From an uncultured bacterium (GTDB lineage: Bacteria; Muiribacteriota; UBA6191), in NCBI GenBank assembly GCA_964503595.1, contig CAZDAM010000003.1:5844-69843 (forward strand): 64,000 nucleotides of DNA. Direction: 5' to 3'. Below are positions 37,754 through 63,700 of the stretch, piece after piece (the first letter of the stretch is position 1; each line of letters starts with the position of its first letter). The notes beneath the pieces were generated by a model that saw nothing but the letters and a program-made list of their open reading frames with translations, was not told the DNA's origin and searched no databases. Made by a program: the position numbers and the translations under genes.

Positions 37754-37757
37754 TTCG

Positions 37758-39902: not shown

Positions 39903-39905
39903 GTT

Positions 39906-41753
39906 CTACCACCAGAGGTACAGACGCATGGTGTCCGTAATGCGGTGAAACAGAATCCAGCCGACACTGCGTCTTCCGGCCTTGATGCGGGCCAGGCCGC
40001 TCATGCCGGGTCGCCACCAGCTTTCCGGGCTCTCTACGAACCGGGCCTTCAGTTCGAAGGTGTTCCCGCTTCTGGGGTCTACTCTGGCAACAGGGACCAG
40101 GGTTTCGATTTCAAAGGGGTATTTCATCTGGGGATTGCTCAGAAGAGCCATTTCTCCCTGTCCGGGAACGGTAATCTCATCAATATCTCTTTCGGGAACC
40201 TTCAGGATGAGATACATGGCCTCAGGCTGGGCAATCTGGTACAGAAGATCGCCTTTGTTGATGGGGGCGCCCATCAGCTTTTCCTTTTCCCCCTCAACAA
40301 TGACTCCATCCTGAGGGGCCTTGAGATCGGCCCTGTTCAGGTAGAACCGGACCCGTTCCAGCTCGGCTTTGGCCTGAGCCAGACGGGCTTCGGAGATATT
40401 CATGTCTGCGAGTCGGCCATCGGCACGGGCCTTCTGGGTTTCCCTCTCATAGCGGGTGACTTCGGCCTGGGCTTCGGTGATTTTGAGATGGATTTCCTCG
40501 GTGTCGATCTGAATCAGGGTCTGGCCTTTGGTGACGGTATCCCCGCTATGGGCCAGTACATTCAGAATCACTCCGTCCATGGGGGAGGAAATGTAGGAAA
40601 TCAGATCGGTTTTGAGTTCGGCTCCGACTTCCACATCATAGTCCCAGGTGCCAAAAGTCAGAAACAGAACAGAGGCGAATCCAATCAGGGCCAGGAGCTT
40701 GGCAAAGGAGTTCTCCGGGCCCAGAAGCCACTGAACCTTGTCCTTCAGATAGTTTTTGAGGCGCTCGCCAGCCCATTGATCGTCGGCATGAAGGCGGGCC
40801 AGAACCGGGGCGCTTTGATTGGCAATCAGTCTCAAGGCCATGATTTCCTGGGGGTGGAACCGGCTTGAGGCCTTTTCAATGGTCAGAACTCCGGCGGGCT
40901 CATCCCTGAATCTTAGGGGGAGGCTGATCACCTGAAAGGCACCGCACTGGGACAGAAACTGCTGGTGGGCAGTCTGAATGGTTCCGGGATCCTCATGTCC
41001 GGGGCAGAGGATCTCTTCGTTCTGATCCAGGCTCTCTTCCATGGCATTGGCCAGACGGACACAGGCTTCGGTCTGGGAGTCAAAGCGCTCGAGATGGCTG
41101 ATGGCCTGAATTTTGATATAGGGGTTCTCATGCCAGCCAAGGCTGACCCGGGATACCTGAAACCGGGAGCAGAGATCGTTGACCAGGCTCATGGAGGCCA
41201 GCTGAAACCGCTCGGCCTTCAGAAGCTGGCTGATGACTTCAAGGGAAGAACCGATCATGCCCTGTTCGCGGGTTTCCCCTGTGTCAGGCAGATTTTCCTC
41301 ACTGATCATGGCCAGCAGTCTGGTGCGGATCAGGAGCTCATTCAGGGCTCTTGAGGGCAGGGGGCCCAGAGCCAGAATGATCAGGTGAGGGGTCTGGGAA
41401 CGTTGAGTTTCGTAGGCGATCACGTTCTGAAGTTCGGGAACTTCGGTGCGGATTTTTTCCAGGGCACAGCCTTTTTCCCTCACCCTGGGCAGCATATCCC
41501 GTCCCGATTCGGCGAGCTGTTCCATGAGGGAATTGGCGTGTTCCTTCGGGTTGAATACGGCATCGACCTGAATCTGCTCTGGGCCGGGAGAAAGAATCAG
41601 TCCGGTGTCAGCGCTACAGATTCCACATACGATTCGCAGATAATCGGACCAGAATGCCTCACTTTTTGGCATCTGGCGCAGGGTTTGAAGTTCTGAAAAA
41701 TACTGGGTCTGGTTCATGGGGAACTCGATTCTTCCGGTTCCGAATTTTCTCAT
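39906..41753 (-). CDS. HlyD-family membrane fusion protein with a roughly 330-aa cytoplasmic N-terminal (GAF-like?) domain
   Basis: Single TM 'LLALIGFASVLFLTFGTW'. Then 'GDTVTKGQTLIQIDTEEIHLKITEAQAEV' lipoyl-like, a coiled coil, and a C-terminal beta-barrel 'ARIKAGRRSVGWILF'. Confidence 0.65.
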   Translation of the reverse strand: MRKFGTGRIEFPMNQTQYFSELQTLRQMPKSEAFWSDYLRIVCGICSADTGLILSPGPEQIQVDAVFNPKEHANSLMEQLAESGRDMLPRVREKGCALEKIRTEVPELQNVIAYETQRSQTPHLIILALGPLPSRALNELLIRTRLLAMISEENLPDTGETREQGMIGSSLEVISQLLKAERFQLASMSLVNDLCSRFQVSRVSLGWHENPYIKIQAISHLERFDSQTEACVRLANAMEESLDQNEEILCPGHEDPGTIQTAHQQFLSQCGAFQVISLPLRFRDEPAGVLTIEKASSRFHPQEIMALRLIANQSAPVLARLHADDQWAGERLKNYLKDKVQWLLGPENSFAKLLALIGFASVLFLTFGTWDYDVEVGAELKTDLISYISSPMDGVILNVLAHSGDTVTKGQTLIQIDTEEIHLKITEAQAEVTRYERETQKARADGRLADMNISEARLAQAKAELERVRFYLNRADLKAPQDGVIVEGEKEKLMGAPINKGDLLYQIAQPEAMYLILKVPERDIDEITVPGQGEMALLSNPQMKYPFEIETLVPVARVDPRSGNTFELKARFVESPESWWRPGMSGLARIKAGRRSVGWILFHRITDTMRLYLWW

Positions 41754-41910: not shown

Positions 41911-42660
41911 ATGTTTAAAAAGATTGTGCCGATCACTAAAGATGCCCATAAGAAAACAAAGATCAAAGCGTTGGCAAATTTCGAGTTTGCGAAGGACGTC
42001 AACCTTGCGGCCGTGATGGTCCATGAGTTTTCCCGTGCGGCAGCGACTTACCCGATTGTGTTTCTGGAAGACAAGGAAAAGGACCAGTTCCGTCCTACGG
42101 TTCTTCTGGGCCTTGAGCAGGGCGAAAACCTGTTTGTGAAGGAAGGAAAGTGGGAGGCTTCGTACATCCCGGCCATCATCCGCCGCTATCCTTTTGCCCT
42201 GGCAAATACAAACGAAGCGGATAAGTACACAATCTGCCTCGATGAAGGCAGCGATCTGGTTAATGATAAAGACGGCCAGGAGCTTTTCGACGGCAAGGGC
42301 GAACCAAGTGAGCTGATGGAGCGCGTGAAGCGCTATCTGGGCGAGCTTCAGCAGATGGAGCGTTTCACTCAGGAGTTCTGTGCAGCGATGTCCCATCTGA
42401 ACATGTTCACTCCCCTGAATATGAAAGTGCGCCTTGGCAATGAAATCAAAAACATCAATGGGGCCTATGTCATCAATGAAGAGCGCCTGGGCTCTCTTTC
42501 GGATGAAAAATTCATCGAGCTTCGCAAGAAGCAATACATTCCGGTGATTTACTCCCACCTGAGCAGTCTGTCCCAGATTGAGCGTCTTCTGACCTTCAAG
42601 GACAAGAAGGGTGGAGTGACTCCAGATGCCATCGAACAGTTCTCGGAGACCGTGAATTGA
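41911..42660 (+). CDS. SapC family protein
   Basis: About 250 aa with 'YPIVFL' and 'PAIIRRYPF' blocks, which I recognise as the SapC family (named from the Campylobacter fetus S-layer secretion locus). Divergent from the HlyD/SecA-like operon. Confidence 0.6.
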   Translation: MFKKIVPITKDAHKKTKIKALANFEFAKDVNLAAVMVHEFSRAAATYPIVFLEDKEKDQFRPTVLLGLEQGENLFVKEGKWEASYIPAIIRRYPFALANTNEADKYTICLDEGSDLVNDKDGQELFDGKGEPSELMERVKRYLGELQQMERFTQEFCAAMSHLNMFTPLNMKVRLGNEIKNINGAYVINEERLGSLSDEKFIELRKKQYIPVIYSHLSSLSQIERLLTFKDKKGGVTPDAIEQFSETVN

Positions 42661-42788: not shown

Positions 42789-45700
42789 ATGAGCTCAAAA
42801 ATGAAAAGCCTTGTCAGAACCCAGACCTACATGAAAGCACGCCGCTTTTTTCAGAAATTTACGAAGAAGAAGGAGGCCGCTCCTCAGGTGCTTGATGGCA
42901 GACGGGAACGCTTCCGTCTGGACAGCCTTGAAGAGAGAGTTCTGCTTTCAGCAGATCCGGTTACGGAGACGGCTCATGCGATTTTGCACGAACCTCAGAA
43001 GAACGAGTCCCGAATTGAGCTTTTAAGTGAGGCTTCCCTGCGTCAGCCTACCCTAAGCCTTCAGGAACAGCACCCTCAGGCCGCAATTGTTCTGGATGCC
43101 GGCACGCTTTCCCAGAACAGAAATTCCCTGGAATCCTCCCTTGTGATCGGCGAGAACGAAGTTCTTGGCGGCAGTGGAAATCTGGGCATTCACCTGATGA
43201 ATGATGGCACCGTTGCTCCCGGATATTCTCCCGGAGTTCAGAATGTAGCCAGCTTCACCCAGGCCGAAGGTGCGACCCTTGAAATCGAAATCGGGGGCAG
43301 TGGGGTTGCCGGGGCCTCCGATGGTTTTGATCAGCTCAATGTCTCCGGTCTGGCAAGCCTTGGTGGCAAGCTTGAAGTCACCCTTCTGAATGACTACAAA
43401 CCTCAGGTCGGAGACACTTTCGACATCCTTACCTTTGGCTCGGTGAGCGGAGAATTTGATTCGGTAGGCGGTCTTTACGGATTTTATGCAGATTATTACT
43501 TCGATGTGGTGCAAAAATCCGATCGCATTCAGCTGGTCGTCAAGGAGCTTTTGCCCGGAGATACCTTCGAGATTGCCGCTGACGAGGCCTTTCGAGATGC
43601 CATGTCGGAGTTTCTGGCTCAGGATTATCTCAAGAAGCCGACTTCCATTACCTTTACCGGCTCCATTGATCTTGGAGATGCCTTTTCGGTTGGAGGCACC
43701 TTTACCCTGAATCAGGTCAGCACCGGTCAGGATGTCACTTTAAGTGATGGGTCCACAGTCAATGTTTCGATCAAGACTCTGGGGATGCGGGGCGCTTCAG
43801 CTTCTTTGGGTGGAAGCTTCGGCCTTCAGTTCGGCGGAGCTGATCTGGGAATTGCCATTTTTGATGCAACTTCCGAAGAAGATGGCCGCAGTTGGGTTGG
43901 AGCCCAGGGAAGTCTGGAAAGCGTTTCTCTTTTGAATCTTGGAAGCTACGGCATCCAGGGAGAAAACCTTCAGCTTGACATCTTCCAGGCCCTGGGAGAA
44001 GACAATGATGTTTTAATCGATTTGTCGGAAACCCCGTTGAGTATTTCTGATGGCAGTGGAACACTGGCTGAATTCTCCAATGACGGAGTTTTTGGGGAGT
44101 ATCTGAACGTGGCTGGAAATCTCCAGCTCACCATGCCTTTTTTGAATGTCTCCGGAGATTTCTTTGTCTCCGCGGATGATGCCTCCCTGTTTCTGGCCGG
44201 AGAAAATGTCACCGCTAGCTTTGAAGCCGGAGGCATGACTCTGGGTGTAAACAATGCCCGCTTTGGGGCCTACATTTTTGAAGATCAGAGCATGGTTCTG
44301 GAAGCAACCGGTGGCCTTGTCATGAGTGGAGGCGATTTCACGCTTCCTACTGGCGATTCTGTGAGCCTCAAATACAACACCACTGGCATCGAATTCACCG
44401 ATCTGGAAATGGCGATTGGGGAGAGATCCTTCACTTTTGGAACCATCGAAGCTTCCGAAGAACTCCTGGAATTGAGCATCAGTGGCTTTGAAGCCAACCT
44501 GGGCGGAGTGTTCGGGCTGTCCGGAGACTTCGGTTTCCGCAAAAACGGGGAAGATCTGAATGTGGTGGCTCAGAATGCTGCCGTAAGCCTGAATGCTGGC
44601 GGCTTCAAGGCTGGAGTGAAAGACGCCACCCTGGGTCTGAAAATGAGCGATCTGGGAACCGCCATGGAAGCAACCGGCGCGGCCTGGTTTGAGCTTGGAG
44701 ATGCAGTTTCCCTGAGTGCTGACAGTGTCCAGGTGCTCTATAACGAAACCGGAGAAGACCTGATTGGAACCAGTCTCTCGGCTGCTTCTCTGGAATATAC
44801 CTTTACAGCAATTGAGGGTTCGACGACCCTTCAGCAAGTGGCTGTAAGTGGGGCCAGCCTGGAAGTGGCCGGCTTTGTGCAGGCCAGCGGTAATCTTGCC
44901 GTCAAGCGGGATGAAGTTGCTCTGGAGCTTTCGGATGAGTCCCTGGTTCTGGCCGAGCTTTTGACCATTGGTGGCAAGAATGTAAGCGCCTTTGCCGGCC
45001 TGAATGGTGGCTCTTCCTCCGCTTTGGGCCTTCAGATCAGCGCCCTGACTTTCGGGGTCGCCCTGATGAGCGAAATCGATGGTGAGGAGAGAAGCTGGAC
45101 AGCCGTCTACGGGGAAGCCGAATCCGCCGGATTTGTCGGTCCAGACAGCCTCACGATTTCTGCCAGTGCCCTGAAACTCGAACTGAATCTGGCCTCAGAA
45201 GACGGCCTGGTAGTGGATTTCTCGGAATTCAGTCACAGCGTTCCCGTTGGTGTGGGCGAAAGCCTCAGCCTTACGATGGACGCTCAGCGGGGCGAACTGA
45301 TCAGTGTCAGTGGCAACCTGAACATCCGCATCTTTGATTTCTTCGCCGTCTCCGGAGGCTTTGCCCTGGAAAAATCCACAGAAACTCTGAGGCTTTCGGA
45401 TGAAAGCGAAGTGGAAGTGGAGCTTCTGACTCTGGGAACCCAGGGAGTCTCGGCTTTTGCCGGTCTGAATCATGGCAGTGACAATGCCTTTGGTTTCTCT
45501 TTGGGAGATGTGAGCCTGGCTTTGGTCATGGCCACAGAAAAAGAGGATTCCTCCCAGTCCTATGTGAGCCTGAAAGCTCAGGCTGGCAGCGTAGCCTTTG
45601 AAGGAATCCCCGGAATCACCATTGCCGCAGATACCCTGGCCGTGGAACTGAACCTGGCATCAACAGAAGGTCTTTTGGTGGACTACTCCACCAAAGCCCT

Positions 45701-48700
45701 TACCGTACCCACGAGTTCTTCCACCAATATGAGCCTCACTATGGATTCCGAGGATGGCGAGCTGGTACGCGCTTCCGGAAATATGGATCTGGATCTCTTC
45801 GGCTTTGTGCAGGTTTCCGGGGGCTTTGGTTTTGAAAAGAAAACTGAAGTGGTGACTCTGGCTGATGGCAGCGAAGCCGAAGTCGATCTGATGACACTGG
45901 GGGCAAATGATGTCTCCGCATTCGCCGGAATCGCAGCTTCAAGCTCAAGTCGGGTGGGCCTTGCCTTAAGCGGACTGAATTTCGGTCTGGCCCTGATGTC
46001 CGATAAAAGCCGGGATGATCGCTCCTGGCTGGCCCTGAAAGGAAATGTAGGGGCTGCCAGTTTTGAGGGAATTCCTGGAATGGAGCTGGCCGCAGAATCC
46101 CTCAAGCTTGAAATCAACCGCTATACCGGAGAAGAAGGCGCATCCACAACCGAAACGATTGTGGAAACCTCCACGGAAACGGTCACGACGGAAAATACTC
46201 AAACCACCACAACAACAACCAAAACCGACACGATCTACAAACTGGATCTGAATGGGGTTGTGGCTCCGATTACTTTGAAACTGGGCGGAGAAACAGCCAC
46301 GATTCAGGTAAGCAAAGGGGCCGATTCGGATTCATTGCTGACCTCGATCAGGCAGGCTCTGGAAGGTTTTGCTGCCATTGGCGAAGGCAATGTTACCGTA
46401 AGTGGCAATCTGGTGGCGGGCTTTGAAATCCGCTTTCTGGGCGATCTGGCGGGAACTTCGGTGGAAGGCCTGAGTGTTGAGACCAGCTTCTTTGAAGTTT
46501 CCACAAACAGCTCGGAAACAAAGAATGCTCTGGTGGGCCGAAGTGAAAGCCAGACTCTGACTATTTCCAATCCAACCCTCAAGGGTTCGGGACGCTACAC
46601 CTTAAGTCTGGATGGCAAGAGCACCGGCGAAATCCGTTTTGCCGGATCCGATGTGGGCAACAATGCCCGCTATATCCGTGAGGCTCTGGAAAAAGTTTCC
46701 GGTATTGGAGCGGGTAATGTGAAGGTGGTCTACGACCAGAACTCCTCCACAACCAGCCAGCGCTATATCATCACCTTCAAAAAAGGTCTGGCCTACACCG
46801 ATATCAGCCTGCTTCAGGCCAATAACAATGGTTTGAAGAATGCGATTGTGGCCGTGACTCCGGGGCAGGATGGTTCCGTTGCCAGAGGAGAAACCAACCG
46901 GGTTTCCATCAATACCCTCGGCGATGTGGATCTGAACCTGCGCTTCACGATCAACGGCAAGGAATACCGCACGGATTATTTTGAGTCTGACTCTTCCGCC
47001 GACAAAGTGAAGTTCATGATTGAGCGGGAAGTCTACAGGGATGATATTGAAGTCCAGGTGACCGAGATCGCCAAAGGCACCTGGGACATCACCTTTGGAG
47101 GGGCTGCAACTGGGGTTTCCCTGGATGATTTTCTGGTGAATACATCGCAAAGCATTGAGTCTGCCAAGCTTCTGGTTTCCCAGATGGGTAAGACGGATGT
47201 AGAGACGGAGACGACGACTACCAGCAGCACGGAAACCATTGAGGTGGAAGAGACCACGGTTCTGGAATATCCGGCAGATGTGGTGGTGGACTTCTCTGAG
47301 AGCAATCTTGATGTTCTCACCGGACCCGACGCGACCATTGGGATTGATTTTGACGGAGATCTTGGAAATCTCCTGAGAGCTTCCGGAAATCTGAATATCA
47401 ATCTGTTCAATTTCTTCTCGGCATCCGGGGCTTTTGCTCTGGAAAAGTATGCCAGCGAAGTGACCCTGGATGATGGAAGCACCCTGGAAGTGGATATGCT
47501 CACCATCGGCGGGCATGGAATTGATGCTTTCGCGGGCCTTAACGGAGGAAGCCCTTCCCGTGTTGGCTTTGAGCTCGAGGCTGCTGATTTTGCCCTGGCG
47601 ATTATGACTGGCGTGGAAGACCCGGCTCTTCAATACACCAGCCTTCATGCCAGTGCCGGAAGTGCGGCTTTTGTTGGCTTTGACAATCTCAGAATTGCGG
47701 CAACCGACATCGAGATCCAGATCAATCAGGCTGATGAATACGGCTTTGTCGTGGACTGGCTGAAATCTCCTCTGGCCCTGACGACTGGCCCTGATTCTTC
47801 CACAGAAATGAATATGGATGGCTCGCGTGGAGAGCTTCTGAGCCTGTCGGCCAATATGGAAATCGATGTGGCCGGATTCTTCATGGTCAACGGACGCCTG
47901 GCCTTTGAAAAGTATGAATCCGTTGTGAAGCTTTCGGATGGCAAGGAAGCCGCAGTCAATCTGATGACGATTGGCGGCAAGAATCTCAATGCCTTTGCCG
48001 GAGTCAACGGAGGCAGTTCCGATCGGATGGGGATTGCCATCGACAATACGGAATTCGCCCTGGCCATGCTTCAGGAAAAAGGCGAAGGAGGCCGTAGCTG
48101 GACTTCTTTGAAAGCAACGTCTGATTACGCTGGCCTGGTGGGCCTTGATGGAATTCTGACGCTGAACGGGCAGGGCATTGCCGTCAATATCAATGACAGT
48201 GCTGAGGATGGCACGGTTGTGATGTATGGCGAAGAGGGCATGGCCATTCGGACCAGCGCGGATACCTCGCTGATTCTTGATATGAACCACCCAGGCAAGA
48301 TCATGCGGGCTGAAATCTATCGGGCTACTCTGGATATTGGTGGTTTCATCCAGATTCTGGGTGGAATCTATTTTGAGAAGGCCGAAAACGTCGAAGTGGA
48401 TGTTCGTACCGGCCTGCCGCTGGACTTGAGTGCCAATACTGGTTTGAGCTCCATCAGCTCGGATCTGCAACGTCTTAAGAATGATGGAATTCTGAGTGAG
48501 GACAATCAGACTCTGACCAATCTGAAGGTGGATTCCCTGACTTTTGGAGCCGGAGACGTTGATGTCTTCGTTGGCTACGGCCCTTATTTTGTGGATTCCA
48601 ACAATGATGGTGTCATCGATAGTCATGACACCCCCAACGAGGATGCATTCGGGTTTTCCCTGGAAAATATCGATGTTGGCTTTGTCACCATGCAGGCGGC

Positions 48701-51700
48701 CAAATCGGTGGATCCGAACGGCGTCATTCCCAAGATGTTTGCCCTGAAGGCGTTCTGGGCGGATCCGCTTGATATTGACTGGGGTTTCTTCAAATTTGAT
48801 ATCGATAATCTGATAGTTGAAGCGAACCAGGGTTCCAAGTGGAAGGGCACCCAGGCCACTCCATTCATTGATTTTGCCTCAAGCTTTGAAAACGGCTATG
48901 CCATTCCGACCCCAGGCGGCGATTCGGACATCGTTCTGGATTACAGCTCCTCCGTGATCGGAGCGTCTTTTGGACATACGCTTCTATCGATTGAGAATTT
49001 CTTCACGATTGAAGGTTCCTTCGCATTCTACAAATACGGTGGCATCACCGTTGATATCGCTACCGGACTTCCCGGAACCCTGCCTACCGGAACTGACGGA
49101 AATACCCGTACCGGTCTTCAGCAGCTGAAGAGTGCGGGCTATCTCTCGGATGACAATTCCCGCATCATGGCAATGCCGATGAATGTGATCACCATTGGTG
49201 GAGATCAGGTCAATATCTATGTGGGCGATGTGGATGATCCATTGCTCTCCTTCACCGACATTGATTTTGGAATTGCCCTTTATACCGCTGATAAGGGAAT
49301 TGATACCAAAGGGATCATTCCCCGCATGTATTCCATGCGCGCTTCCATTCCGGATGCCGTTGATATCGACTGGGGCTTTTTGCAGCTTGAAGTCAAGGAT
49401 CTGGTCCTAAAGGCCAATTCCGGAAGCCAGTGGAAGGGCCTGACCGGTCTGAAGCCCTATGTGGATTACACCACAAGTTTTGAAGAAGGCTTTGCCATTC
49501 AAACCGGAAATGAGCCCGTTATTCTTGATTATAACCGTGGCTTTTTGGGCGTGGAAATGGGTTATGCCCTGGTGAATATCGGGGACTTCCTGTTTCTGAA
49601 CGGCTCCTTCAATCTGGAAAAGACCGACAACGTTGCGATCGATATCGTAACCGGATATACCTCATCTTCCTTCTGGACCGCTCCTTCCAAGGTTCAGGCC
49701 GGTCTTCAGAAGATGGGTGGATTGTCTTCGGACAAAACCCGCATTGAAGATATGACGATGTCCGGCTTTGTTCTGGGCGGGGACAGTGTCAATGCCTTCA
49801 TTGGAATGGGTCCTTACTTTGAGGACACCAACGGGGATGGCCGGATCAATTCGGATGATGTCAGAAATGATGGTGCCATTGGCTTTGCCGTGGACAATCT
49901 TGATATTGGTCTGTCCATTTTCAAAAGCATCAAGGCTCTGGATCCGGACAAGGTCCTGCCGACATTCTATGCCCTGAAAGCCAGTGTGGATGCGATCGGT
50001 CTGGTTGGAATCGATTTCTTTGAACTCTCAGCCGAGGGCGTGACCCTCAAGGCCAATTCCGCGAGCAAGTACAAAGGTGCCCAGGTCAGTCCCTGGATTG
50101 ACTTCACTCAGAATTATCCTGATGGATTTGAAGTTTCCAAGGGCAACGGGGAATCCGTCTTCCTGGACTTCAGGGATCCGATTCTGGGGATCAATGTTGA
50201 ACGGGCCACCTTCATCATTGATAAATTCATTCATATCCAGGGAGCCTTCTCCTTTGAGCAGGGAGCCCGTCACCGTGTCAGTGTCGATACGGGAGTGAAT
50301 ACCTTCACAGGCTCTGCTCTGGCGGGCACTCTTGCCCAGCTGGAGCTCAAAACCGATGCTGAGGTCTCTTCCGACTGGACCCGGATTGAAAACCTGGAAG
50401 TGATTTCCACCACGATTGCCCTGAGTGATGTGGATGTTTTCGTAGGCTTCGGGGAACCTGATTTTGATCAGGACTTCAAAGAGCAGGACGATCTTTTCGG
50501 CTTTGGTATCAAGGACGTGGATCTGGCCATCGGCATGTTCAAGATTGCTGCCGACGTCAAAAACTTCCCGACTTTCATGGCCCTTTATGGGGCATCCAGC
50601 CAGTTTGAACTGTTCACCGGTCTTGATTTCTTTGAGTTCTCAGGGGAAGCCCTTCAGATCGAGCTGAACAAGGGAACCAAGTGGAAGGGCTCCGTTGCAG
50701 CTCCGACCATCAATTTCAAGGACAGTTTCCTGCCAGTTGGTGATAAGCCGGCTGGAATGGAGACGGTTGCCGGAACCGAAAGTTTCTACCTAGATTTTGC
50801 CGGTCCGGTCATTGGAGTCCAGGTCTTTGATGCTGTCATGAGAATTGACGGCTTTTTGCACATCGCTGGTGATTTTGCCTTCCGCAAGGAAACCACCAGG
50901 CAGACCATTAAAACGACTCTGGGATCCTATGAGGATGTAAACCTTGAGGCCATGAGCATTGCGGCCAATGATGCCTACCTGTTTGCCGGTCTGAGCTATT
51001 ACGATTTCTCTTCCGGGGAAATGGAGACTCTGGTCGGGGTTGAACTGGAGAATGTGAATGTCGGAATCGGTATGTTCAAGCCGACTCTGGACAATTCTCC
51101 CCTGATTACATCCCAGAAATTCCAGTTCACCACGGTCAAAGCCCATGCCGATCGGGCGGCCCTGGTAGGAATTGAAGATCTTCTGACTGTGGATCTTCGT
51201 GATATCACGATTGAAGCCAATCTTGGCAAAGGCAGCAATCCACTTCTGAAGCCTTTCATTGATTTCTCGGAAGATCCCTATGTGATTGAAGTTGGTGGAG
51301 AAGAAGTCGTCTTTGATTATGACAACAGCTGGCTTCTGGCATCTGTTGGTCTGGCCCATCTTCAGCTTTCCCAGTTTCTTTACCTGCATGGCTCTCTTGC
51401 TATCAGCAAAGCTGGAGCCCGTGAAGTCAAGGTCAATGCCGGGGAGTTCTCCTCTCTTCTGGGTGGAGATACGGTGACCCAGAGTGTTGAAACCATCACC
51501 ATCGGCGGACAGGATCTTTACGGTTTTGCCGGAATCGGCGGACCTTACCGCGAGGATTCCAACGGGGATGGTGTGATTGATGATCAGGACGGGGTCAATG
51601 ACTCTGCTCTTGGGGTCAGTCTGGAGGATGTGGATTTTGGGGTTGCCGTGATGACAACGGTTCTTCCCGGAGGCCTTCCTGCCAAGGGTCTGCCGACCTA

Positions 51701-54700
51701 TGTCGCGACCAAGGCCCATGTTGGACGGGCTGCCCTGATTGGTATGGAAGAGTTTCTGGATGTGGAACTCAACAAGGTGGAAGTCAATATCAACACTTCC
51801 ATCATCAAGGGACTGCCACCTCAGGCAGCTCTGGTGGCCCGCCTTCCGAACATCAATTTTGAAGAGTCCTTTGAAGAGGGTTACTACGCTGTTCCTACCG
51901 GGGCGGATGATGTCCTCATGGACTTCAATAATGAGCTGATTGAAATTTCGATTGGCTATGCAGAAGGAAACCTGGCCGGAATTCTTCAGCTCAGCGGTTC
52001 CATGGCCTTTTCCAAGCGGGGCTCGGAAGAAGTGACCTTAACGGATGGAACCAAGAAAACGGTTTCCACTCTGAGTCTGGGGATTGGAAATGCCTACGGC
52101 TTTGTCGGCTACGGAGGTTACTGGAGAGATTCCGATGGCAACGGCAAGATCGATGAAAACGATATTCCGAATACCTCAGCTGTAGGCCTTGCCATTGAAG
52201 ATTTGAATGTTGGCGTTGTATTCATGCGCGCCATTGACAATACGGATGTCTATGTCGGAGCCCAGGCCGATCTGACCAAGGCCGGATTCGTCGGAATTCC
52301 GGGAGTTACCTTTGAAGGCCGTGATTTCAGCCTCAGCCTGAATGCTTCCGTGACCGGTCCTGCCGTGGATTTCTCGGTATCCGGTGCAGATGGTGGGGCA
52401 TATCATGTGAAAACCGGTGAATTTGATCCGGAAACAGAAGAAGAAATCGATATCCTTCTGGAGCATGATGAGAAGCTTCTGGCAGCCCAGGGTGTTGCTG
52501 AAATCAACTTCTTTGATGTGGTTCAGATTGACGGAGCCTTCGATATCACAGTCGCAGAGTCCGGCATTGTGCTGTTTGCGGATGGCGATGCCTTCATCGG
52601 TGCGGGTGGCATTGGAATGTCCACCAGTGTGACCGGTCTTGTGGCCATTGAAGATGGTATGGCCATGCGTCTGAATCTGGAGCAGGGTCTGGATCTTGGA
52701 CCTCTGGCTTCCTTTGATGCGGAATTTGAATTCCGGATGAATACCTTTGGCCGGGACTATGTCTATGTGGTTCCGGAAAAACTCAGGGAGAAAACCGGAT
52801 TCGATGAATTCGTGGTTTCAGCCAAAGCACCCGGACAGGATGAGGTTTCCGATTTCTATGTCTCCCTGACCGGAGAAGGACACCTGAGTCTTCTGAGTGC
52901 TCTTGATATTGATGGTGAATTTGCAATTGTCTTCACCGAAGACAGTGCCCGTCTGGAAATCGGCGGCATCATCGATATGCCTCTGTTTGAACCTATCGGT
53001 GTTACCGGAACTCTCGGGTTTGAGGATGGCGGGCTTTACGGAGCTCTTCAGCTCGGACATCCATCCGGTTCGACTCTGATTGATGCGGGAGTTTTCTCCA
53101 TCAGCGGTTCTTTCCTGCTTCAGATCAATACGACATCGGAAACCCAGACCGTCAAGGCTCTGGACTTTTCTGAAGACGGAACCATCATTGGTTTCACTAC
53201 CAGAGAGATTGCCGCGGAAGAACTCTATATCGCCGGAACTGCATCGATTGAGCTGGCCGGATTTCTGGAAATGTCCGGCTCCGCAAGCCTGAGGCTGAGT
53301 TCTGAAGGAGTGGAAGCCGATCTGGCCATGAGCCTGGATCTGGGAGCCTTCGGAAGCCTGGAATTCAAAGGTGCTGCCGCAATTCTGAATACTGAGGATG
53401 AGGGCGCGGTCTTTGCCCTGAGCGTGGAAACCAATGTTGTCCTGGGCATGGATATTGTCGGAATTCAGGCTGGAGCCCTGCTTCAGATCAATACCAGCTC
53501 CATGCACGAATATGCAGGTGTTCAAGCCGGAACCACCTTCCTTCTGGAGCTCGACGGGGCCCTGAAGCTTCTGGCCTTCAATATCGATTTTGCCGGATCG
53601 ATCAGCGTGATTGACGGCATCTTTGAACTCCGAGTTGATGAAGCCAGTCTGAGCTTCTTCAATTTCGTGAATATTGAAGTCAGCGGATATTTCCGCTCGG
53701 ATGGAAAATGGAGAGTCAGTGGCGAAGCCCATATGAACATTGACATGGGTCCACTGGAACTCAGTGCCGGCTTTGAACTCACGGTCGGGCACGACATCTT
53801 CCGGGCAAGGGTCTATGGTTCTTTGGATATCAATATCGATATGGGGCTTTTCTCCATCAATGAAACCCTGGCAGGTTTTGAGGGTCTGATTGAAATCACG
53901 GAAGCCTCGGCCCACCTGAAAGCATCCGTTACCATTGTGGGAATCAGTGTCTCCGGTTCCATGACCTGGAGCTGGGGTGCTCCTCCGGTGATTGCTTCCC
54001 AGGTTGGCGACACCGTCATCCTTCACATGGGTGATGATGCTGACAAACGGGGCGATCTCTATCTCGACATCGTCAACGAGACCTATCACATCGAGGAACA
54101 GAAGGGAGTCCTGACAGTCCGCGCCATGGGTGAAACCATGGAATTCCGCAACGTGAAGCGGATTGTCGCCAAAGGTGGCAATGGCAATGACACCATCATT
54201 GTTGGCACGGGTGTTACCGCCAAGCTCGAATTTGATGGAGAAGACGGAACGGACACTCTGCTGATTGCCGGAGGTGCTGAGGGCTCTGTCATTCGTGGTG
54301 GTGCCGGCAATGACTATATGGTTGGTGGAAACGGCGGCATCTACTATTACGGGGATGGTGGCAATGACACCTTCATCGGGGGCGATGGCGGCGAAATCAT
54401 TGACATGGGTACCGGCAAGAACACAATTACAGCTGCCGGTGGAAATGACGTTATCTATATCGGAGCCGGGAATAACACGGTAGATGCCGGTTCTGGCAAT
54501 GACACCATGTATGTGGGCTGGAACGGGTATCTGGAGCTCACTGCCGGATCCGGAGAAGACATTGTCATCATGGATACCCTGGCTTCCAACGAGTCCCTGA
54601 AATTCAAGGATCACAGTCTGGAATACAGCTTAAGGGCCATGGACTTCGGTGATGATCTCGAACTGATTCAGATCAGGGATACCGCGGCGACCACAAAAAT

Positions 54701-57700
54701 CGAGAACAATGGTGTGGACAGCTGGGGTTCCACCGGGCTTTATCTGGAGTCGTCCGGAGTGCTGGATGTCACCGAAGCAAGTCTGATCATGCCCAAAGGG
54801 CAGGTTACCCTGATTTCTCAGGGCATCAACGGGGTTCTGAACACCCAGATCGACACGCTTACGGTTGTAAACCATGCCACAGGTTCTTACGCGGACATTG
54901 TCATTCGTGAAGTCGATGATCTGAAGATTGTGAAGAATGGTCTGGCCCAGGGAGGCATCTATACAGCCGGGGGTCAGATTGATATTCAGCTGAATGCCCA
55001 CGAAGCCAATCTTCATCTCGAATCCGGAATCATCCGGACCCATGGAGCCGGAAAAGGCATTCGCATTGTTGCCGATGATGTGGACTTCAATTCCGGTAAA
55101 GACATGGTTACGGCTTCGGGGCAGTTTGAGCTTCTGACCCGTTCCCAGTCTCAGGGTTACCGAATCGGTGGCGCTGGTCAGTCCTCCTTTGGCAATGACT
55201 ATACCCTCGGCTGGGATAACGGCTACCTGAATTTCTCCATGAAAGACGTGGAAGCTCTGACTGACGGCTTCAGTCTCCTGAAATTCGGCACCGAAAATTC
55301 CACGGCCCTGATGTTTGTCGGGGATCTGGAAAATGCTGACGTGGATGTGAAGCATTTTGATGCCAAAATCACGGATGTTGCGGAATTCCATGCCCGCCGG
55401 ATCAATATCGTCGGGGATGTTCAGGCTTCCCAGAAGGTGACTTTTGCCTCCGAACTCCTGGAAATCTGGCGAACCAATATCAACAATCCGTTCGGACAGC
55501 CGGACTCAGGGATTACAGGCACCGAACTTGTCCTGAATATCAGTGAGCAGATGCTGGTGACCGGCTACATCCGGGCCGAGGACAGCCTGAAAATCCGGGT
55601 GAATGGATCGACGGGTCAGGGTGCCATGGTGACCTATGGAGCCGAGCCGAATTCCTTCACGGCCGATCAGGGCAGTTCGATTGTGACCCTGAATGATGGT
55701 GCCGTCCTTGATATTGAAACGTCCGGCTCCATTTACAGCGCCACGAATATCGAGGTCATGGGCAAGAACTCCCAGCTGAAGATGAAGGCGGGAACAGGAC
55801 TTACCATCCTGGAAGGAGCCGTGGTCGCGGCCCGTTATGACAACAGCTCGATTCTTCTTGAATCCAGCAAGTATCTCCACATCAATTCTGGTGGAGCGGT
55901 TACTGCGGGAGCCCGCTTTGATGATATCAACGGGGAACCGGTTGCCGTAAAAACCGGGGCAAATGCTTCCATGACCCTGAAAACTTCCGGGGAAATGAAG
56001 CTTTCCGGCTCGATTACAGCGTCGGGAAGTATGGAACTGAGTGGGGGCGGGGCAGAATCCGACTACAAAGATTACTTTGATACGATTCCCGGAAAAGTAC
56101 TTGGAAAAATGGTGGCATCGGATACGGTGCTGGCAGCTCTTCAGGCTGGAAACATTGATTCAGCCTTAAGGCAGCTTTTCGCTGAAAATCATCTGGATCT
56201 TGGCAACAGTGTCAGCGTGAACGGAGTCGGTTCCTACACTTCTTTCAATGATCTGACTCCGGAACAGAAAGCTCTGGTGGCTCAGGCTCTGGGCTATACC
56301 GTCTATGAGGGCACCAATTACTACAATCCGGATGCGCCTGCTGGAAGACAGCTGATTGATGCCTTCATTGAAGGCAACAGTCCATTCCTGCAACCGGGAC
56401 AGACTCCCGCGGATCTGGGCTATACCTGGCATGCAGGCACTTTCTTTTACAACCCGCTCACCGGAGAAATCCTCAGTGGTTTCAAACAGGGTGTGTCCGC
56501 AGACTATGACAATGCGGATATCAACTGGGGCAGTGCGGGAGCTCCCGCTTCCGGCACCGGTTTTGATGCCCTTACCGCAGATCAGAAACTCAAGGTTGCA
56601 GCTCATCTGGGATACCAGACCGATGATGGCAAGGATTTCTATAACTTCAATGCTGTTCAGGGTAAGAAAGTGGTTCGCACCTTCACCCAGGGACTGGTAA
56701 CCCAGTACCGCAATGCGGATATCTACTGGGGCAATGTTGCCAAGCCGTCGGATTCCCAGTCATTTGCAAGTCTGAGCGCTGAACAGAAAGCTGTTGTAGC
56801 CAGAACTCTTGGTTTTGAGATGGTCACTGGGGGCGCCTATGTAAATCTCAATGCCAGTGCCGGCTTACAGGTGGTTTCACAACTGACAACGGCTCCAGCG
56901 GATTACCGGTTGTCCCAGATTGATTTTGCGGGAGTTCCGGCTCCTCAGGAAGGGACAGCCTTTGAATCCCTGACTCTGGAACAGCGCAATCATGTGATCA
57001 GCGCACTGGGATACGAAGTCTTTGAAGGTCTGCTCTATATCAATCCTGAGAGCGGATCTCTGGTCACGACATTTACCAGCTACAACGGGGTTGAGTGGGG
57101 CGATGATCTGGCGGCTCCGGCCGAAGGCACGCCATTTGAAAAACTGTCCGGCCAGCATCAGCAGAAGGTTCTTGAGAGTCTTGGCTACAGGGTTTTCACC
57201 GGAACGGCCTACTACAATTCCGACGCAATCCCAAGCAAGCAGTTTGTGCAGGGTTTTGTCGAGGGAGTGGACTATCTGAATTCGGCCATAACCTGGTCCA
57301 GGGTAGAGATTCCGGATGCAGGCACAGCCTTTGAGGACATGACTGCCAATCAACAGAATGCCCTCCTCAAGTCCCTGGGCTATGAAGTCCACAACAACAC
57401 GGTCTTTTACAAGGCAGGAGCTCCGCTTGAGACCCGCCTGATGACAAATTTTGTGGAAGGTCTTCATTACAATAATGCTGATATGCCTTGGGGCGAGTCC
57501 GGAACGGCCGTGACCAACCGCTACATTGTGAATGACGGAACAAATCAGTACGTCATCTACACTCTGGATCAGGAAAATGATGGAATCATCGATGAGATCC
57601 AGATCCAGAAACCGCATGAGCTTCTGGGCCAGCGTGGGTATGGATTCCTGCTGACCGGTACGATTACAACACTGGAAGATGGCCGGGATCTGGTCATTGC

Positions 57701-60700
57701 CAGTGAAGATGACACCATCATCCGGGGCAATATCAACCTGTTGGGAGCAAACTCGGATCTTACGGTTCAGTCCGACAAATGGGTCTTCTGGGAAGGGGCT
57801 GCGAACGTAACCGGAAATATCACGGTTCAGGGTGGAGTTTCTCTGGATGGAACCAGTCTGAATGGTGCCCGTGCCGACGGGACCAGTGTTCTGATTACGG
57901 CAACTTCCAAACTGGTTACCAGTGGCGCTGGAACTTCGATCACCATTCAGGGTGGTCAGGATGTGGACATCATTGGCCGCATCATTGCCGGTGGAGCCGC
58001 AAACAGCAATGGAGTCCAGTTTGCCGGGGATGATTCCCGTGTGGATATCACGGCCGGGCAGCAGATCTATGTTGACAGTGTCGTAACGGCCGCCAAAGCG
58101 GTGACCTTGACCACAACCGGTGTTCCTGGAGCCGATGATGCCTCCCAGGGAGTGATTGTCACTACCGCGGCTGGCCTGACCACGGCTGGTGAAACCAGTG
58201 ACAATTCGGGTGGACTGGTAAAAATTGATGCTGTGGGTGGCGTTCAGATTATGGGGATTGTTCTCTCCGGAGGCACGATTTCCCAGACCTTTGATGCCAA
58301 TGGTGTCCTGACAAGTGAAACGATTGCCTATTCTACCGAAAGGTCATCTGTTGAAATTTCCAGCCAATCCCAGACCTATATTGGCGGGATGGCCCGTACG
58401 GAAACCGGGAATATGGTTGAAGTCGGTGGTGTGATTCGGGCAACCCAGAATATTACTCTGAGCGGAGGAACAAGCTCGGACGATATCGGAGTCAAGCTCC
58501 CCGGTTCCGCCAAGGTGGTCACCACGAACCGCGACAGCAGCATTGTTGTGAATTCCGCTCAGGATGCAGAAATTTATGGCCTCCTGATTGCCGGTGGAAT
58601 TATTACGGATCACCGGGATTCGCTGGGCCTTTATCTGGGGACGACTGTTGAGACTCTGGATGGAAACTCCACAATTTCCGTAGAAGCAGGACATCAGATC
58701 CGGCTTGGTCGTGATCTTTACGCTGGCAAGCTGATTGATCTGAGGGGCGGAACGGATCCTGCCGATGGATCCTCGGAATTTGCCGGTCAGGGCGTTGTTG
58801 TGGGTGGAGCCGTCCATCTGAAGACTTCCCAGGCTGGTTCGACCATCAATCTGAGTGCTTCCGGGGATACCTCCATTCTGGCTCCGGCCTGGACCCAGGA
58901 AATCATTGCGGATGGTTTTGCCGAGTTTGCCAGTGGCAAGCTCAGCCAGGATGTCAGCCTGCATCTGATTGTGAATCTGGGAACCCATACGGTGGAAGGT
59001 ACGGTTCAGCTCAGCGCTCAGGAAACCCAGAACAATACCGGGCTGGCTTCTTTGGTTGCCGATCTGAATGCGGCACTTCTGGCCACCAACTTTACGGTGA
59101 CGGCTTCTCCAGGTGGAAATCCCGTGGTTGGATCCACCCAGCTTTTCAATGCCAATGATCCCGAGGTAACCATCCGTCTGACGGACGGTCGCCTCATGCT
59201 GACTTCGGCCTTTGAAATGACTCTGAAAGGGGATTCCAGCGATTCCCTGATTGGTTTCACCCAGAGTGGGGATGTAGCTTCCACCCGAAGCTACACCATG
59301 GATGCTTCAGCCAGTGGCTCCGTCATCAACATTGGTAAAAAAGATGCCCCCAACGGTCAGATTTATGTGGCAGGCAATCTCAGGGCTCATTCTGCCATCA
59401 ATCTCTATTCCGGTACTGAAGGGGACGGTTCCCAGAATTTCACTCTGGGAGCAACCGGGATTCTGGAAACCCTGAGTGGCAGCGTGGAACTCAATCCGGG
59501 AGATCATGGGGTCATTACCGGGACAATCATTGCCCGCGGTCGCGGTGCCGACATTATCGTTCATTCCAAGCATACCCTTGAAATCAAGGGAACCCTGAAA
59601 GCTCAGGATGACATCACGATCACGGCAGGCTCAATTGAGAAGGCCGGAGAGGAAAGCATCCGAACCCATGGAACCAGTGAACTGATCACTTTTGATGATG
59701 ACGGCCGGATTCTGATTCAGGGTCTGAATGATGTTGTCATCAACAGTGTTGTTGGAACCGGGGGCGGAGCCTTAAGGGAAGTAACGGTTGAATCCACAAC
59801 GGGTACCCTGACTCTGGAAAAAACCTCGGGTCAGATTGAAACCGGTGGTCAGCTGAACCTCAAAGGCAAGAATATCGATCTGGCAGGTACGATCACCAGT
59901 ACCCGCGCGACAGATGCGACTTACGATCATGAAATTTCCATTCAGGCTGAGAATGATGCCAAGGTTCATGGAAACCTGACTCTGGCTGGCTCACTTCTGA
60001 TTGAAACTGGTGGCAATCTTGAGATTTACAACACCAGACTGATGATCAACGGTGAGGGGCAACGGCTGAAAATCCAGAGTACGGGTGATGTCCGTCTGGG
60101 TACAACGGCTCCGGTTCAGGGCCAGGCCAGTGATCGTGCAGTCATTCTTCAGGCCAATCAGCTCATGGATATTCGAACGGATGGGGCCTTCCTTCTGGGA
60201 AGTGATGCCCAGCTCTATACAACCGCGAATCTGAGCGAGATGAAAATTCAGGCTCTGAGCGCGTCGATCGTCGGCTCCATGAGAGCCGGAGCCAGCTTTG
60301 ATGGAACTTCGTCCTATACTTATACAGGGAAAAATTCCAGTCTCAAGCTGAGCACGGATGCTGCTGTTTCCGTTGGAGGCCAGGGCCTTGATGAAAATGC
60401 CAATCTGGTCTCAAGGGGTGGAGATATCTTTGCAACCGGCAAGGTGGATCTGCGCACTGGTATTGGGACCAACGGTCTGGGCATGACGGTTTCCACTTTA
60501 AGCTCCATTCAGGTGGATGCGACTGGTGGCGGGGCTCTGGCAGATGATATTGATGGCCAGATCAACCTGAGATCCGACGGCAGCATTCAGCTTTACGGTA
60601 CTGTCCTTGCCAAGGACAGCGGATCGGATATCAAGATCCAGTCCGAAGGCCTGCTTCTGATCGACAATCTGGTATCCGCTCAGGATCACCTGGAAGTCAT

Positions 60701-63700
60701 CGGCGGAACTTCCTCCTCTGGTGGTCTGATTGTGAACAGCTTTGCCTTTGATGGCAATGATCAGAGAATCGCGGGGGGAACCCTGAATACGGCTCTGAAT
60801 GGCACGATGGTGATCGAGGCTGTTGGCACGATTTACCTCAAAGGGGTTATAGGTCAGCTGGATGGAAGCAACAACGCGATCACTTCCTCGATTTCGGTGG
60901 ATTCCACTGCCGGCGATGTCACGGTAACCGGTCTGGTGGATGCCAGAGATTCCGTAACCATGCTTGGAACGGATCTGAACATCATGCAGGATGCCCACGT
61001 ATTCGCTCAGAATACAGGGGCTCAGGTTCTGATGGATGCCCGCGATGAGCTCTATGTCCAGTCTTCTCAGGCCAGCGGGAATTCCGATGGTCTGGTTTAC
61101 GCTGACAATCTGCTTCATTTAAGAGGCGGGAGCGTTCAGATTGACGGGATTGTGAAGTCGCTTGCGGCCAATTCCCAGATGTTCATTCATTCCGCAGATG
61201 ATCTGATTGTACGTGGACTGGCTCAGTCCGCCGGTAGCGCCACTCTGGCAGCCGGCGTTTCCAGAGACGCTACTCTTGCGACCCTAAGAGCCGGTGTGAC
61301 GACCTCAAACCTGCTTGGAGGAAATGTCCGCATTCTTGGTCAGGGCATGGTGGAAGCCGTTGGCAATGCCAGTGTCCAGGCAGGCCAGGATGTCATTATC
61401 AGTGCCGATTCAACGGTGGCAGGAACCCGGGTCGTTCAGATTCCGGTCATTACAACGGTCGAAGAAACCATCACGGTAACTGTGGGTTACCAGGAAGTTG
61501 CTATCGGGACTGTTTCTGTGCCCGTAATCAGCTGGGAAACCAGTTCGATCACCGAGCAGATTGGAACCGAGAAGGTCAAGGTGGGTGCCGAGAATCTGCG
61601 CATGGATGTCACCCTGCGCCAGACCGGTTACTACAACCCGAATGCTCCGGAAGGTCAGAAATTCCGTGAGATTCTGATTGAAGGCATTGATTACCATAAT
61701 GATGAAGTGAACTGGAACAATGCCGGGAATGAGGCGACTCCAGGTCGTACTTCCGAAGCGGTAACAGCGAATTATAAAGATGCCAGCTATAAGGGATTTA
61801 CCAGCCTGAACGATGCTCAGCGTCAGGCCGTTTTGAACCATACGGGCTACATGAAGCTCTATCAGTTCACCTATGCCAATGCCATCCTGGAAAAAACCCT
61901 GAATGGAAATTACACCGAAACTGCCGTGACTCCTCAGTGGGCAGGCAACGAGCAGGTAATCTACCGTATCGAGGTCGATGGCTGGAAAGACAAATATATC
62001 CAGATGCCCAAAGGTGCCCAGAACGACATTCTGAATGTGGTCACTCAGGGCGAGGCCAAATACCTGACTGGTGATACCACCCGTAACGGGAATAATGATG
62101 GAACCTGGGTCAGTGCTTCTTCCAATCCGGGAGGAGAGCTGGTAGGTCGTTACAAGGATCAGTCCGATGTGAATTACACTCAGGATCGTTCCGACTATTA
62201 CTTCCCAAATGATGGCTACCCTTCCGGGTATCTGAGTCCACATGATGCGGAAGAAGATGGAGAAGCCCGCTGGGATGTGAACTATTCCTCGAATTCCGGA
62301 TATCGTCATTTTGATGTGGAAAGCCGCAATGACAATAAATCCATGATGCGGGATCCAAACTGGTTCTGGCAGGGTACGGCCAAAGCTGACGGCGATGATG
62401 ATTACACAACCGGTTTTGACAATGATCGCTATACCCAGTACATCTGGGCCCAGCAGGATTTCCTGAGCACGCTGTCAGCCGATACGGCGACCTTTGAAGA
62501 AAAATCGACCTCGGTCCGTCAGGATCAGGAAGCTTTCAAGTTCAAGTACTGGAGCAGCTGGTACGGTCTTGGCGGCTACTGGATGGACAATGACGATGGT
62601 TCTGAGATGCCCTATGGTGAAGAGGAAGATGTTCCGACCTGGGGCTGGAGGGATCTGACTGCTGGTGATGAGTCTGTTCTGAAAAGTGTCTGGACGGGTC
62701 ATGATGTCTCCGGTGATAACAACTGGCATCACGATGGGATGAATTTTTCCCACAATTACCTGACAGCGGGCAATTTTTCGAACTGGAAGTCCAATTACCA
62801 GTGGCTGCAATCGACCAGTGTTTACACCACCCAGTTCGGTGGGGATGATGTCGGAGGGTTTGTTCGGGGTAAGTTCGAATACACCCCGGATGACTACGTC
62901 CATGTCGGTGGAGATGGCATCCATAAACGTCCGGTCGTTCTGCAGGATTACAACGACTATGTCTATGACTGGATTTCCGATTGGCATGATATCTATGATC
63001 AGAGGATTCAGCTTCAGTATGAGCTGGTGACTCAGTCTCAGGATATCTTTGACTACCGGCCGATTTATGAGACCAGCACCAAGCAGGTCAAAATCACCCA
63101 GTTTGAAAATCAGACGGTCTGGGAACGTCAGGCGATCACGGATACGGAAACGATTACCTGGACCCAGCGGGATTTCCAGAACGGGGATACCCGTTCCTAC
63201 GGGGAATTTGATGGGGAGTCTCTGAAAGGCTCTGCCATCACGATTTCCACAAACCGTGATGTGACGGTCAGCGGTCTGGTCACGGCAACAGACAGCCTGC
63301 TTGTGAACAGCGGGCGCAATGCTACGGTTCAGGGGACGGTGGCAAGCGGTGCTGAACTGGCTTCCCAGTCCCGTTTAACGGCGGCAAACAGCATCACGGT
63401 CGAAGCTGAGAGCAAGCTGAATCTCATGGATTCAGCCAAACTTGAAGTGACGGCAGCTGACAGTGATATTGTTCTGAAAAGCTCTGGCACTATGAAGGCC
63501 GGCGGTGAAATCCTGGCCAAGGATACAGTGACTTTGAAAGCTGCTACCGATCTGGAGCTTTCAGCATCCATTCAGGCCGGAAATCTGGTAGAGATTAGGG
63601 CAGGGGATTCGACTGTCGGAGATATTCTTGATGGAGACATCACGGCCAATATCTCGGCTCAGATTATCGTGACAGAGGCAGGCTCTGACATTGTCATGAG

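Follow-up and report, generated by a model that had tools for sequence, protein, structure and literature searches.

What is built by the seven large repeats encoded at nucleotides (nt) 48500-52400 of a 64,000-nt stretch of DNA from an uncultured Muiribacteriota bacterium (UBA6191; contig CAZDAM010000003.1, assembly GCA_964503595.1)? This whole stretch is referred to below as the window. A sequence-only reading of the DNA had described the region as seven modules of about 195 amino acids (aa), each with a DxDxDG calcium loop and a tryptophan-containing motif, in an unrecognised repeat family that might be diversified by recombination. As shown here, the module is a genuine, uncatalogued and widespread repeat unit of ~155-215 aa, whose predicted fold has no solved relative. 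As for its role, the answer that we favour, with modest confidence, is that the seven repeats form a Ca2+-stiffened structural ribbon of a secreted filament protein.

When nt 48000-53000 were translated in six frames, a single plus-strand frame was free of stops and the other frames held 10-108 stops, and the region of interest falls within one unbroken giant open reading frame (ORF). The product exceeds 7,070 aa, and the ORF is still open at 64000, so that its 3' end lies beyond the window. Minus-strand ORFs across the module region (e.g. 50790-51719) were rejected as shadows of the 21-kb plus-strand frame. The repeats do occupy 48500-52400 as claimed, but the array is wider than this, with further modules at aa 291-1845. 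In total, the giant protein carries 13-14 modules of one family from aa 291 onward, the seven long ones come last, and the array makes up the front third of the protein (aa ~290-3240). The ORF and its modules, detected by alignment and with a hidden Markov model (HMM) of the module, are as follows.

42789..64000, + strand: giant ORF; previous stop at 42705, no stop from 42708 to the window end, first ATG at 42789
43659..48323, + strand: six short modules (~155 aa), from module HMM domain hits and MAFFT alignment
48324..48977, + strand: long module 1 (aa 1846-2063), with helix insert, DxDxDG loop and DIDWGF...NQGSKWKG
48978..49565, + strand: long module 2 (aa 2064-2259), with helix insert, a GDVDDP turn replacing DxDxDG, and DIDWGF...NSGSQWKG
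49566..50204, + strand: long module 3 (aa 2260-2472), DxDxDG loop present
50205..50831, + strand: long module 4 (aa 2473-2681), an acidic PDFDQDF loop replacing DxDxDG
50832..51353, + strand: long module 5 (aa 2682-2855), without DxDxDG, turn SYYDFSSGE; the same slot of relative P0003 has a loop
51354..51959, + strand: long module 6 (aa 2856-3057), DxDxDG loop present
51960..52499, + strand: long module 7 (aa 3058-3237), DxDxDG loop present; final module of the array

The proposed seven-fold repeat was borne out by alignment. The long modules span nt 48324-52499 with lengths and spacings of 174-218 aa (mean ~199 aa, or 597 nt), modules 2-7 share 29-37% identity with module 1, pairwise BLAST among the seven gives 64-127 bits, and a 'G.F.F.K' anchor recurs at aa 1858, 2076, 2272, 2485, 2694, 2868 and 3070. 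The E-values of the module HMM on the window's own modules are circular, and the reality of the repeat rests on the pairwise BLAST scores and on matches in other proteins. The seven motif positions listed earlier (48770 to 52290) each fall on one aligned column block, at the turn between predicted strands D and E. The reported periodicity of about 590 nt agrees with the mean module length, but it does not extend to the DxDxDG loops, whose successive distances of 1230, 1731 and 573 nt are irregular.

The short modules lie at aa 291-445, 689-844, 844-999, 999-1162 plus 1451-1535, 1535-1690 and 1690-1845, and the module HMM finds six or seven such ~155-aa copies within aa 291-1845, none of them with a loop. 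According to the alignment, a long module is a short module with insertions at hairpin turns; at the loop site the short modules have a turn of 6-12 residues, e.g. 'GLNGGSSSAL'. The fourth module of the array (aa 999-1162 plus 1451-1535) is interrupted by an insert of ~290 aa (aa ~1163-1450, ~46275-47138) made of T-rich linkers and repeated domains of ~95 aa (aa 1162-1249 against 1271-1354, 31% identity). Between the first and second detected modules, aa 446-688 (44124-44852) show module-like strand patterns, e.g. GDFGFRKNGEDLNVV, that score below the HMM threshold, and this divergent stretch probably holds degenerate modules.

Each module had been said to contain a DxDxDG loop, which is the case for modules 1, 3, 6 and 7 and not for modules 2, 4 and 5. 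We searched with a strict 12-residue pattern, D-x-[DN]-x-[DN]-G-x-[ILV]-[DN]-x-x-[DE], which gave four matches in the whole protein, all within long modules.

48594..48629, + strand: DxDxDG loop 1, DSNNDGVIDSHD, module 1, at the B-C hairpin turn
49824..49859, + strand: DxDxDG loop 2, DTNGDGRINSDD, module 3
51555..51590, + strand: DxDxDG loop 3, DSNGDGVIDDQD, module 6
52128..52163, + strand: DxDxDG loop 4, DSDGNGKIDEND, module 7

In 2,000 shuffles of the protein only 0.0025 matches were expected, and the four loops share one alignment position; therefore, they are not chance matches. Their ligand pattern (D/N at 1, 3 and 5, G at 6, I/V at 8, D/N at 9 and D/E at 12) makes them, at the level of the motif, putative Ca2+ loops of the DxDxDG/EF-hand-like type. 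Across the family, a DxDxDG-type motif occurs in 196 of the 759 full-length modules (26%; 156 proteins). Insertions cluster at four turns, after HMM positions 31, 60-65, 95 and 149, and the motif occurrences have two hotspots, one at positions 59-61 (154 occurrences) and another after position 149 (65 occurrences). In modules 1-4, an amphipathic helix insert takes up the first insertion site, the A-B turn, and the second, the B-C turn, is the site of the DxDxDG loop.

The loops also have a history that can be followed slot by slot in other proteins. In slot 1, the loop is present in 3/3 proteins compared (orthologues ~40% identical), in slot 3 in 3/4 and in slots 6 and 7 in 2/2, and the substitutes are equally persistent, with 'GD..DP' in slot 2 and the acidic 'PDFD' loop in slot 4 each found in 4/4 proteins compared. 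In slot 5, the loop is missing from the window protein and retained in the orthologue P0003, which, judged from the aligned sequences, is a loss in the window protein. Since the loop state of each slot is largely kept in orthologues that are only ~40% identical, selection on the loops is likely to have acted, with occasional gain and loss. Of the motif 'DIDWGF...KANSGSKWKG', which had been assigned to every module, only modules 1-2 have a literal copy; modules 3-4 show a weaker, still recognisable form (LVGIDFF...KANSASKYKG and FTGLDFF...ELNKGTKWKG), and in modules 5-7 it has degenerated to the 'VG...N' core common to the family. Across the family, conservation falls on Gly, Asn and hydrophobic residues of the core, and the loop residues are not among the conserved ones.

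Structure prediction, which the sequence-only reading had suggested as a check, yielded confident β-sheet models (pLDDT 93, pTM 0.85-0.87; per-residue and global AlphaFold scores, respectively). Using AlphaFold2 with a 48-row module alignment, module 1 was modelled with a pLDDT of 93.7 and a pTM of 0.85, and the model shows long strands at residues 9-28, 63-85, 109-125, 138-152 and 156-170, a helix at 39-53 and shorter C-terminal strands. The segment that contains the loop (86-108) is modelled free of helix with strands on either side, so that no helix comes after the loop. In a two-module model (aa 1846-2259; pLDDT 93.2, pTM 0.87), strand 210-223 spans the module boundary at 218/219, which would indicate a rigid and continuous sheet. 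Because the alignments behind these models were shallow, the topology was checked independently by mean-field direct coupling analysis (DCA) of 747 non-identical modules from 156 proteins, in the zero-sum gauge and with the gap state and gap-rich columns excluded; unless the gap state is removed, gap and indel couplings around the loop dominate the analysis. DCA resolved the antiparallel ladders A(8-25)/B(36-53), B(38-57)/C(72-90), C(72-90)/D(94-112), D(100-114)/E(118-130) and E(124-130)/(171-177), with residues ~143-168 also in contact with strands C-E, and these ladders agree with the AlphaFold strand order and lengths. Each module is therefore predicted to consist of about five long strands, A-E (roughly 15-20 residues each), and a C-terminal stretch of shorter strands. 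A meander of long antiparallel strands, continuous across module boundaries, is supported by the two independent methods, and the loops are placed at hairpin tips along one edge of the sheet. Among solved structures, none was found that specifically resembles the predicted module fold.

That the family is unrecognised, as had been supposed, was confirmed by every catalogue searched. Pfam gave no match to aa 1-3600 of the giant protein or to 48 individual modules (E <= 1), and nothing useful for the equally Pfam-dark family members P0045 and P0131; NCBIfam and PDB sequence searches with the module, and a PDB sequence search with the N-terminal 1,845 aa, also gave no match. Relatives can be reached with the module itself. 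A word-indexed search returned 8 of them at <=38% identity, all partial proteins from metagenome-assembled genomes (MAGs), all module arrays, and one named 'LEPR-XLL domain-containing'. A word-prefiltered search with the module profile returned 2 short fragments, such a prefilter being unsuited to a divergent family. Using an exhaustive profile search of 1.84 billion representatives, we obtained 1,992 cluster representatives at E <= 1e-3, most of them pieces of giant proteins, 1,353 at E <= 1e-10 and 629 at E <= 1e-30, with lengths of up to 7,902 aa (many of 5,000-7,900 aa) and up to 32 modules each. An LEPRxLL motif stands at the start of 22 of the 147 module-bearing relatives retrieved, the remainder being mostly fragments. 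A scan of GTDB genomes with the conserved N-terminal domain described below gave 52 loci in at least six phyla, 38 of them with modules directly downstream; the taxa include Cloacimonadota, UBP17, Geobacteraceae, Desulfuromonadaceae, Methylococcales, Campylobacterota, many Burkholderiales and one Rhodobacterales isolate. In SapC and the N-terminal domain, the closest relatives are UBP17 and Cloacimonadota MAGs (74-78% and 58-63% identity).

Related comparisons bear on the suggestion that the modules are variable surface repeats, in which unequal crossover or gene conversion between similar repeat DNA would yield new variants. The modules are indeed tandem and homologous, and their number varies among relatives from few to 32. 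However, Tandem Repeats Finder found no tandem DNA repeat across the giant gene, and the longest direct DNA matches within the gene are 21-56 nt at 61-86% identity, located at conserved motifs. Moreover, for 7/7 long modules the best match is the collinear module of P0001, P0002 or P0003 (84-183 bits, 31-51% identity), and the best match to a sister module is weaker (64-127 bits, 27-34% identity). Since orthologue matches beat sister matches, the copies are old and orthologous position by position; their divergence predates the split of the lineages, and homogenisation has not taken place. The recombination proposal is thus contradicted, and we consider it extremely unlikely.

What kind of protein carries the modules? 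Its composition is distinctive, with zero Cys in 7,070 residues by composition count, more acidic than basic residues (D+E 13.4% versus K+R 6.0%) and a richness in Gly, Ser and Thr. Three further regions could be defined on either side of the array.

42912..42980, + strand: LEPR-XLL N-terminal domain (aa 42-64), LDSLEERVLLSADP; NCBIfam NF012209, 23.4 bits against a cutoff of 17
43146..43625, + strand: conserved N-terminal domain (aa ~120-279), 'PGYSPGVQN...DQLNV...GDTFDILTF'; 51-59% identity with relatives
54198..54563, + strand: RTX-type nonapeptide block (aa 3804-3925); phmmer match to the CyaA RTX block 7rah_E, E = 5.4e-7

With a domain above the cutoff and a size of several thousand residues, the protein has both features of the LEPR-XLL giant protein class (NF012209). 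The conserved N-terminal domain of ~160 aa follows the LEPR-XLL domain. The RTX-type block scores 22.3 bits with Pfam HemolysinCabind, just under the cutoff of 23, and the modules themselves do not match this family. The block is placed mid-protein, downstream of the module array, and not near the C-terminus. Ahead of the LEPR-XLL motif, aa 1-41 (42789-42911) are K/R-rich and strongly basic without a hydrophobic signal-peptide core, and several relatives begin likewise. Two other repetitive regions without Pfam matches were noted further downstream, namely five repeats of ~60-110 aa with 'LT.EQ...LGY...YYN...NADI.WG' (aa 4470-4892, ~56196-57464) and long self-similar stretches of ~23% identity that are possibly β-helical (aa 5000-6190, ~57786-61358).

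The genes next to the giant gene give a second indication of its likely destination.

41911..42660, + strand: sapC-family gene (Pfam SapC, E = 4e-73), 128 nt upstream of the giant gene
35792-37753, - strand: SecA-like ATPase of 653 aa, member of a divergent three-gene cluster (35792..41753)
37758-39902, - strand: M50/HExxH metalloprotease fused to a membrane-fusion-protein-like region, same cluster
39906-41753, - strand: HlyD-family adaptor with a GAF domain, same cluster

These genes recur with the modules. SapC lies upstream of module genes in 14 of 38 module-bearing loci, the GAF-HlyD adaptor and the M50 fusion recur at ~7 loci and the SecA-like gene at 4, with Pigmentiphaga and Pseudacidovorax isolates included, and homologues of the cluster adjoin module-bearing LEPR-XLL genes in the distant Burkholderiales Polaromonas, Azohydromonas, Pigmentiphaga and Pseudacidovorax. 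We regard the SecA-like, M50-fusion, GAF-HlyD and SapC genes as a candidate dedicated export or processing system. A metagenome contig of 6.1 kb (Logan ERR4674194) encodes an identical SapC beside the same GAF-HlyD gene and includes the beginning of the giant gene, and a second metagenome contig, of 50-200 kb, with an identical SapC may contain the giant gene in full. Elsewhere in the window, a lipid A cluster (1962-7850) has an MsbA-like ABC transporter between two LpxB paralogues (2790-3926 and 5671-6840), as well as LpxI and a lipid A acyltransferase; the duplication of LpxB is unusual. From the lipid A genes it follows that the host has an outer membrane (diderm).

Using these elements, a working model can be proposed. 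The seven repeats would be consecutive blocks of one continuous antiparallel β-sheet ribbon, and the last strand of each block would run into the next, giving a rigid ribbon instead of beads on a string. The giant protein, which is probably secreted and probably calcium-stabilised, would be exported unfolded by a type-I-like route with SapC, HlyD-family, M50 and SecA-like proteins, and would meet millimolar Ca2+ outside the cell. There, Ca2+ could bind the predicted DxDxDG loops and the downstream RTX block and lock the ribbon, which would then act as a stiff extracellular stalk or spacer carrying the C-terminal filament parts. An extracellular and Ca2+-dependent context is suggested because the protein has an RTX-type block, no Cys and an acidic composition, the host has an outer membrane, and sapC, HlyD, M50 and SecA-like neighbours accompany the gene both here and in distant genomes. 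Calcium binding, export and the stalk role are suggested by the loop motif, the composition, the RTX block and the neighbourhood, and by analogy with Cag_663, a giant 'symbiosis' protein that is compared below.

Several points weigh against this model. Loop-free modules are common (3/7 here and ~74% family-wide), so calcium cannot be essential to the fold. The AlphaFold alignments had 48 and 28 rows and were partly paralogous. HlyD-family genes adjoin the giant gene as a type I system would have them, but neither an ABC transporter nor a TolC gene was seen beside it, and any type I secretion signal would be expected at the C-terminus, which lies beyond the window. In addition, a purely structural role is a default assignment that leaves the conserved Trp motif of slots 1-2 unexplained. 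Another explanation is that the modules are ligand-binding and that the DxDxDG loops and the Trp motif (DIDW...W.G) form Ca2+-dependent sites, e.g. for carbohydrate, on another cell or surface, in which case the array would be the adhesive part and not a passive stalk. Loops set at the tips of hairpins along one sheet edge would suit such contacts, as would the conservation in orthologues of slot-specific motifs including two tryptophans, and the analogue Cag_663 is responsible for contact between cells in a consortium that depends on Ca2+. However, the loops are optional and are gained and lost between orthologues, family conservation lies in the core residues instead of the loops, and no similarity of the module to known lectins or carbohydrate-binding modules was found; we thus judge adhesion to be unlikely.

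The remaining alternatives start from the amphipathic character of the sheet. It might be an open trough with a hydrophobic groove that moves lipids or other hydrophobic molecules along the filament, as a functional analogue of bridge-like lipid-transfer proteins (AsmA/TamB, VPS13), or that dimerises via this face, which we find rather improbable. With the same reserve we view a wider proposal, in which the array would be the cargo-proximal part of an as yet undescribed export system for LEPR-XLL giants: the basic, non-hydrophobic N-terminus with its LEPRxLL motif would be recognised by the SecA-like ATPase, processed by the M50 fusion and passed on via GAF-HlyD and SapC, after which the modules would form a novel-fold amphipathic trough, dimerising or conducting hydrophobic molecules between cells, as speculated for Cag_663. 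It is very unlikely, in our estimation, that the array belongs to an RTX-type cytotoxin and that its long amphipathic hairpins enter a target membrane or the outer membrane and make a very large β-barrel or pore there. Among these possibilities, the Ca2+-stiffened ribbon of a secreted filament protein is the one that we retain.

Few parts of genomes are annotated as poorly as the giant proteins of bacteria, and the module described here accounts for thousands of residues per protein in ~2,000 protein clusters from many phyla. With its boundaries, topology and optional Ca2+-type loops defined, such proteins could be annotated and modelled, and cultured carriers are available in Pseudacidovorax intermedius DSM 21352, Pigmentiphaga litoralis E30, Polaromonas sp. 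CG9_12 and Poseidonocella pacifica DSM 29316. That SecA-like, M50-fusion and GAF-HlyD genes keep recurring nearby offers a testable clue to how very large proteins are exported. The finding is a structural repeat and no new biological principle; the kind is already known, i.e. Ca2+-decorated tandem β repeats of giant secreted proteins, and the module itself is what had been uncatalogued.

DxDxDG calcium-binding loops, which are EF-hand-like, reportedly occur in many structural contexts, a point that is attributed to Rigden and Galperin (2004). The four window loops fit this 12-residue pattern at positions 1, 3, 5, 6 (G), 8 (hydrophobic), 9 and 12; however, the class is one of motif and not a homologous family, and in the window protein it is an optional enlargement of a β-hairpin turn, without flanking helices. 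The proposed likeness to thrombospondin-type-3 and dockerin sites holds in the same sense, since the loop consensus (DxDxDGxxDxxD / DxNxDGxIN) fits, but membership in either domain family fails. Thrombospondin type-3 repeats are contiguous, Cys-rich and disulfide-locked Ca2+ wires, and Pfam TSP_3 was rejected on the lack of any Pfam hit (protein E <= 0.1, modules E <= 1), zero Cys and loops that lie 573-1731 nt apart. Dockerins are paired loop-helix 'F-hands' of ~70 aa with a duplicated segment of ~22 residues, and Dockerin_1 was rejected on the lack of a Pfam hit, a single loop per module and a modelled loop segment that is free of helix.

A resemblance in overall character is seen with the RTX/BIg giant adhesins (MpIBP, LapA, SiiE), which are type I-secreted, acidic and Cys-poor, with tandem β repeats stiffened by Ca2+. 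The window protein is likewise giant, acidic and free of Cys, with tandem β repeats, an RTX-type block and a HlyD-family gene nearby. In those adhesins, however, the repeats are Ig-like sandwiches of ~100 aa joined by Ca2+-binding linkers, whereas the window units of ~155-215 aa are predicted to be fused in one continuous sheet. Ig-like adhesin repeats (BIg, cadherin-like) were accordingly rejected, there being no Pfam hits and units of 155-218 aa in a continuous long-strand meander.

Beyond these, our work on the module links giants of the window type to the sole LEPRxLL giants that have been studied, the Chlorochromatium symbiosis proteins. A Vibrio paper mentions in passing an LEPR-XLL/RTX protein of ~8,000 aa, and one study treats LEPRxLL giants in depth, with Cag_663 and Cag_665 (formerly Cag_0614 and Cag_0616) of Chlorobium chlorochromatii, of 20,647 and 36,806 aa (bioRxiv 10.64898/2026.03.19.712371). 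According to that study, both proteins have an LEPRxLL N-terminus, sapC upstream and N-terminal extended β-sheets without known structural match, and in Cag_663 inserted HK97-like domains protrude from a sheet that has a hydrophobic cleft. The C-terminal filaments bind Ca2+, the consortia disintegrate in EGTA (ethylene glycol tetraacetic acid), and the proteins are proposed to leave the cell unfolded through a Sap-like type I system and to be folded outside by Ca2+ (bioRxiv 10.64898/2026.03.19.712371). One difference is the TolC gene found between the two Cag genes, with no counterpart seen beside the giant gene of the window; another is that DxDxDG hairpin loops are undescribed for the Cag sheets. 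Moreover, since no protein longer than 7,902 aa is among the 150 best profile hits, any similarity of the module to Cag_663 or Cag_665 is not strong. The likeness is one of architecture and context: LEPRxLL, sapC directly upstream, giant size, proposed export in the unfolded state with folding by Ca2+, an N-terminal sheet without structural match, β-rich Ca2+-type later parts and domains inserted in the sheet (the ~290-aa insert that splits the fourth module here, HK97-like domains in Cag_663). The overall plan of the window protein is thus the same as that of the symbiosis giants, at a smaller scale.

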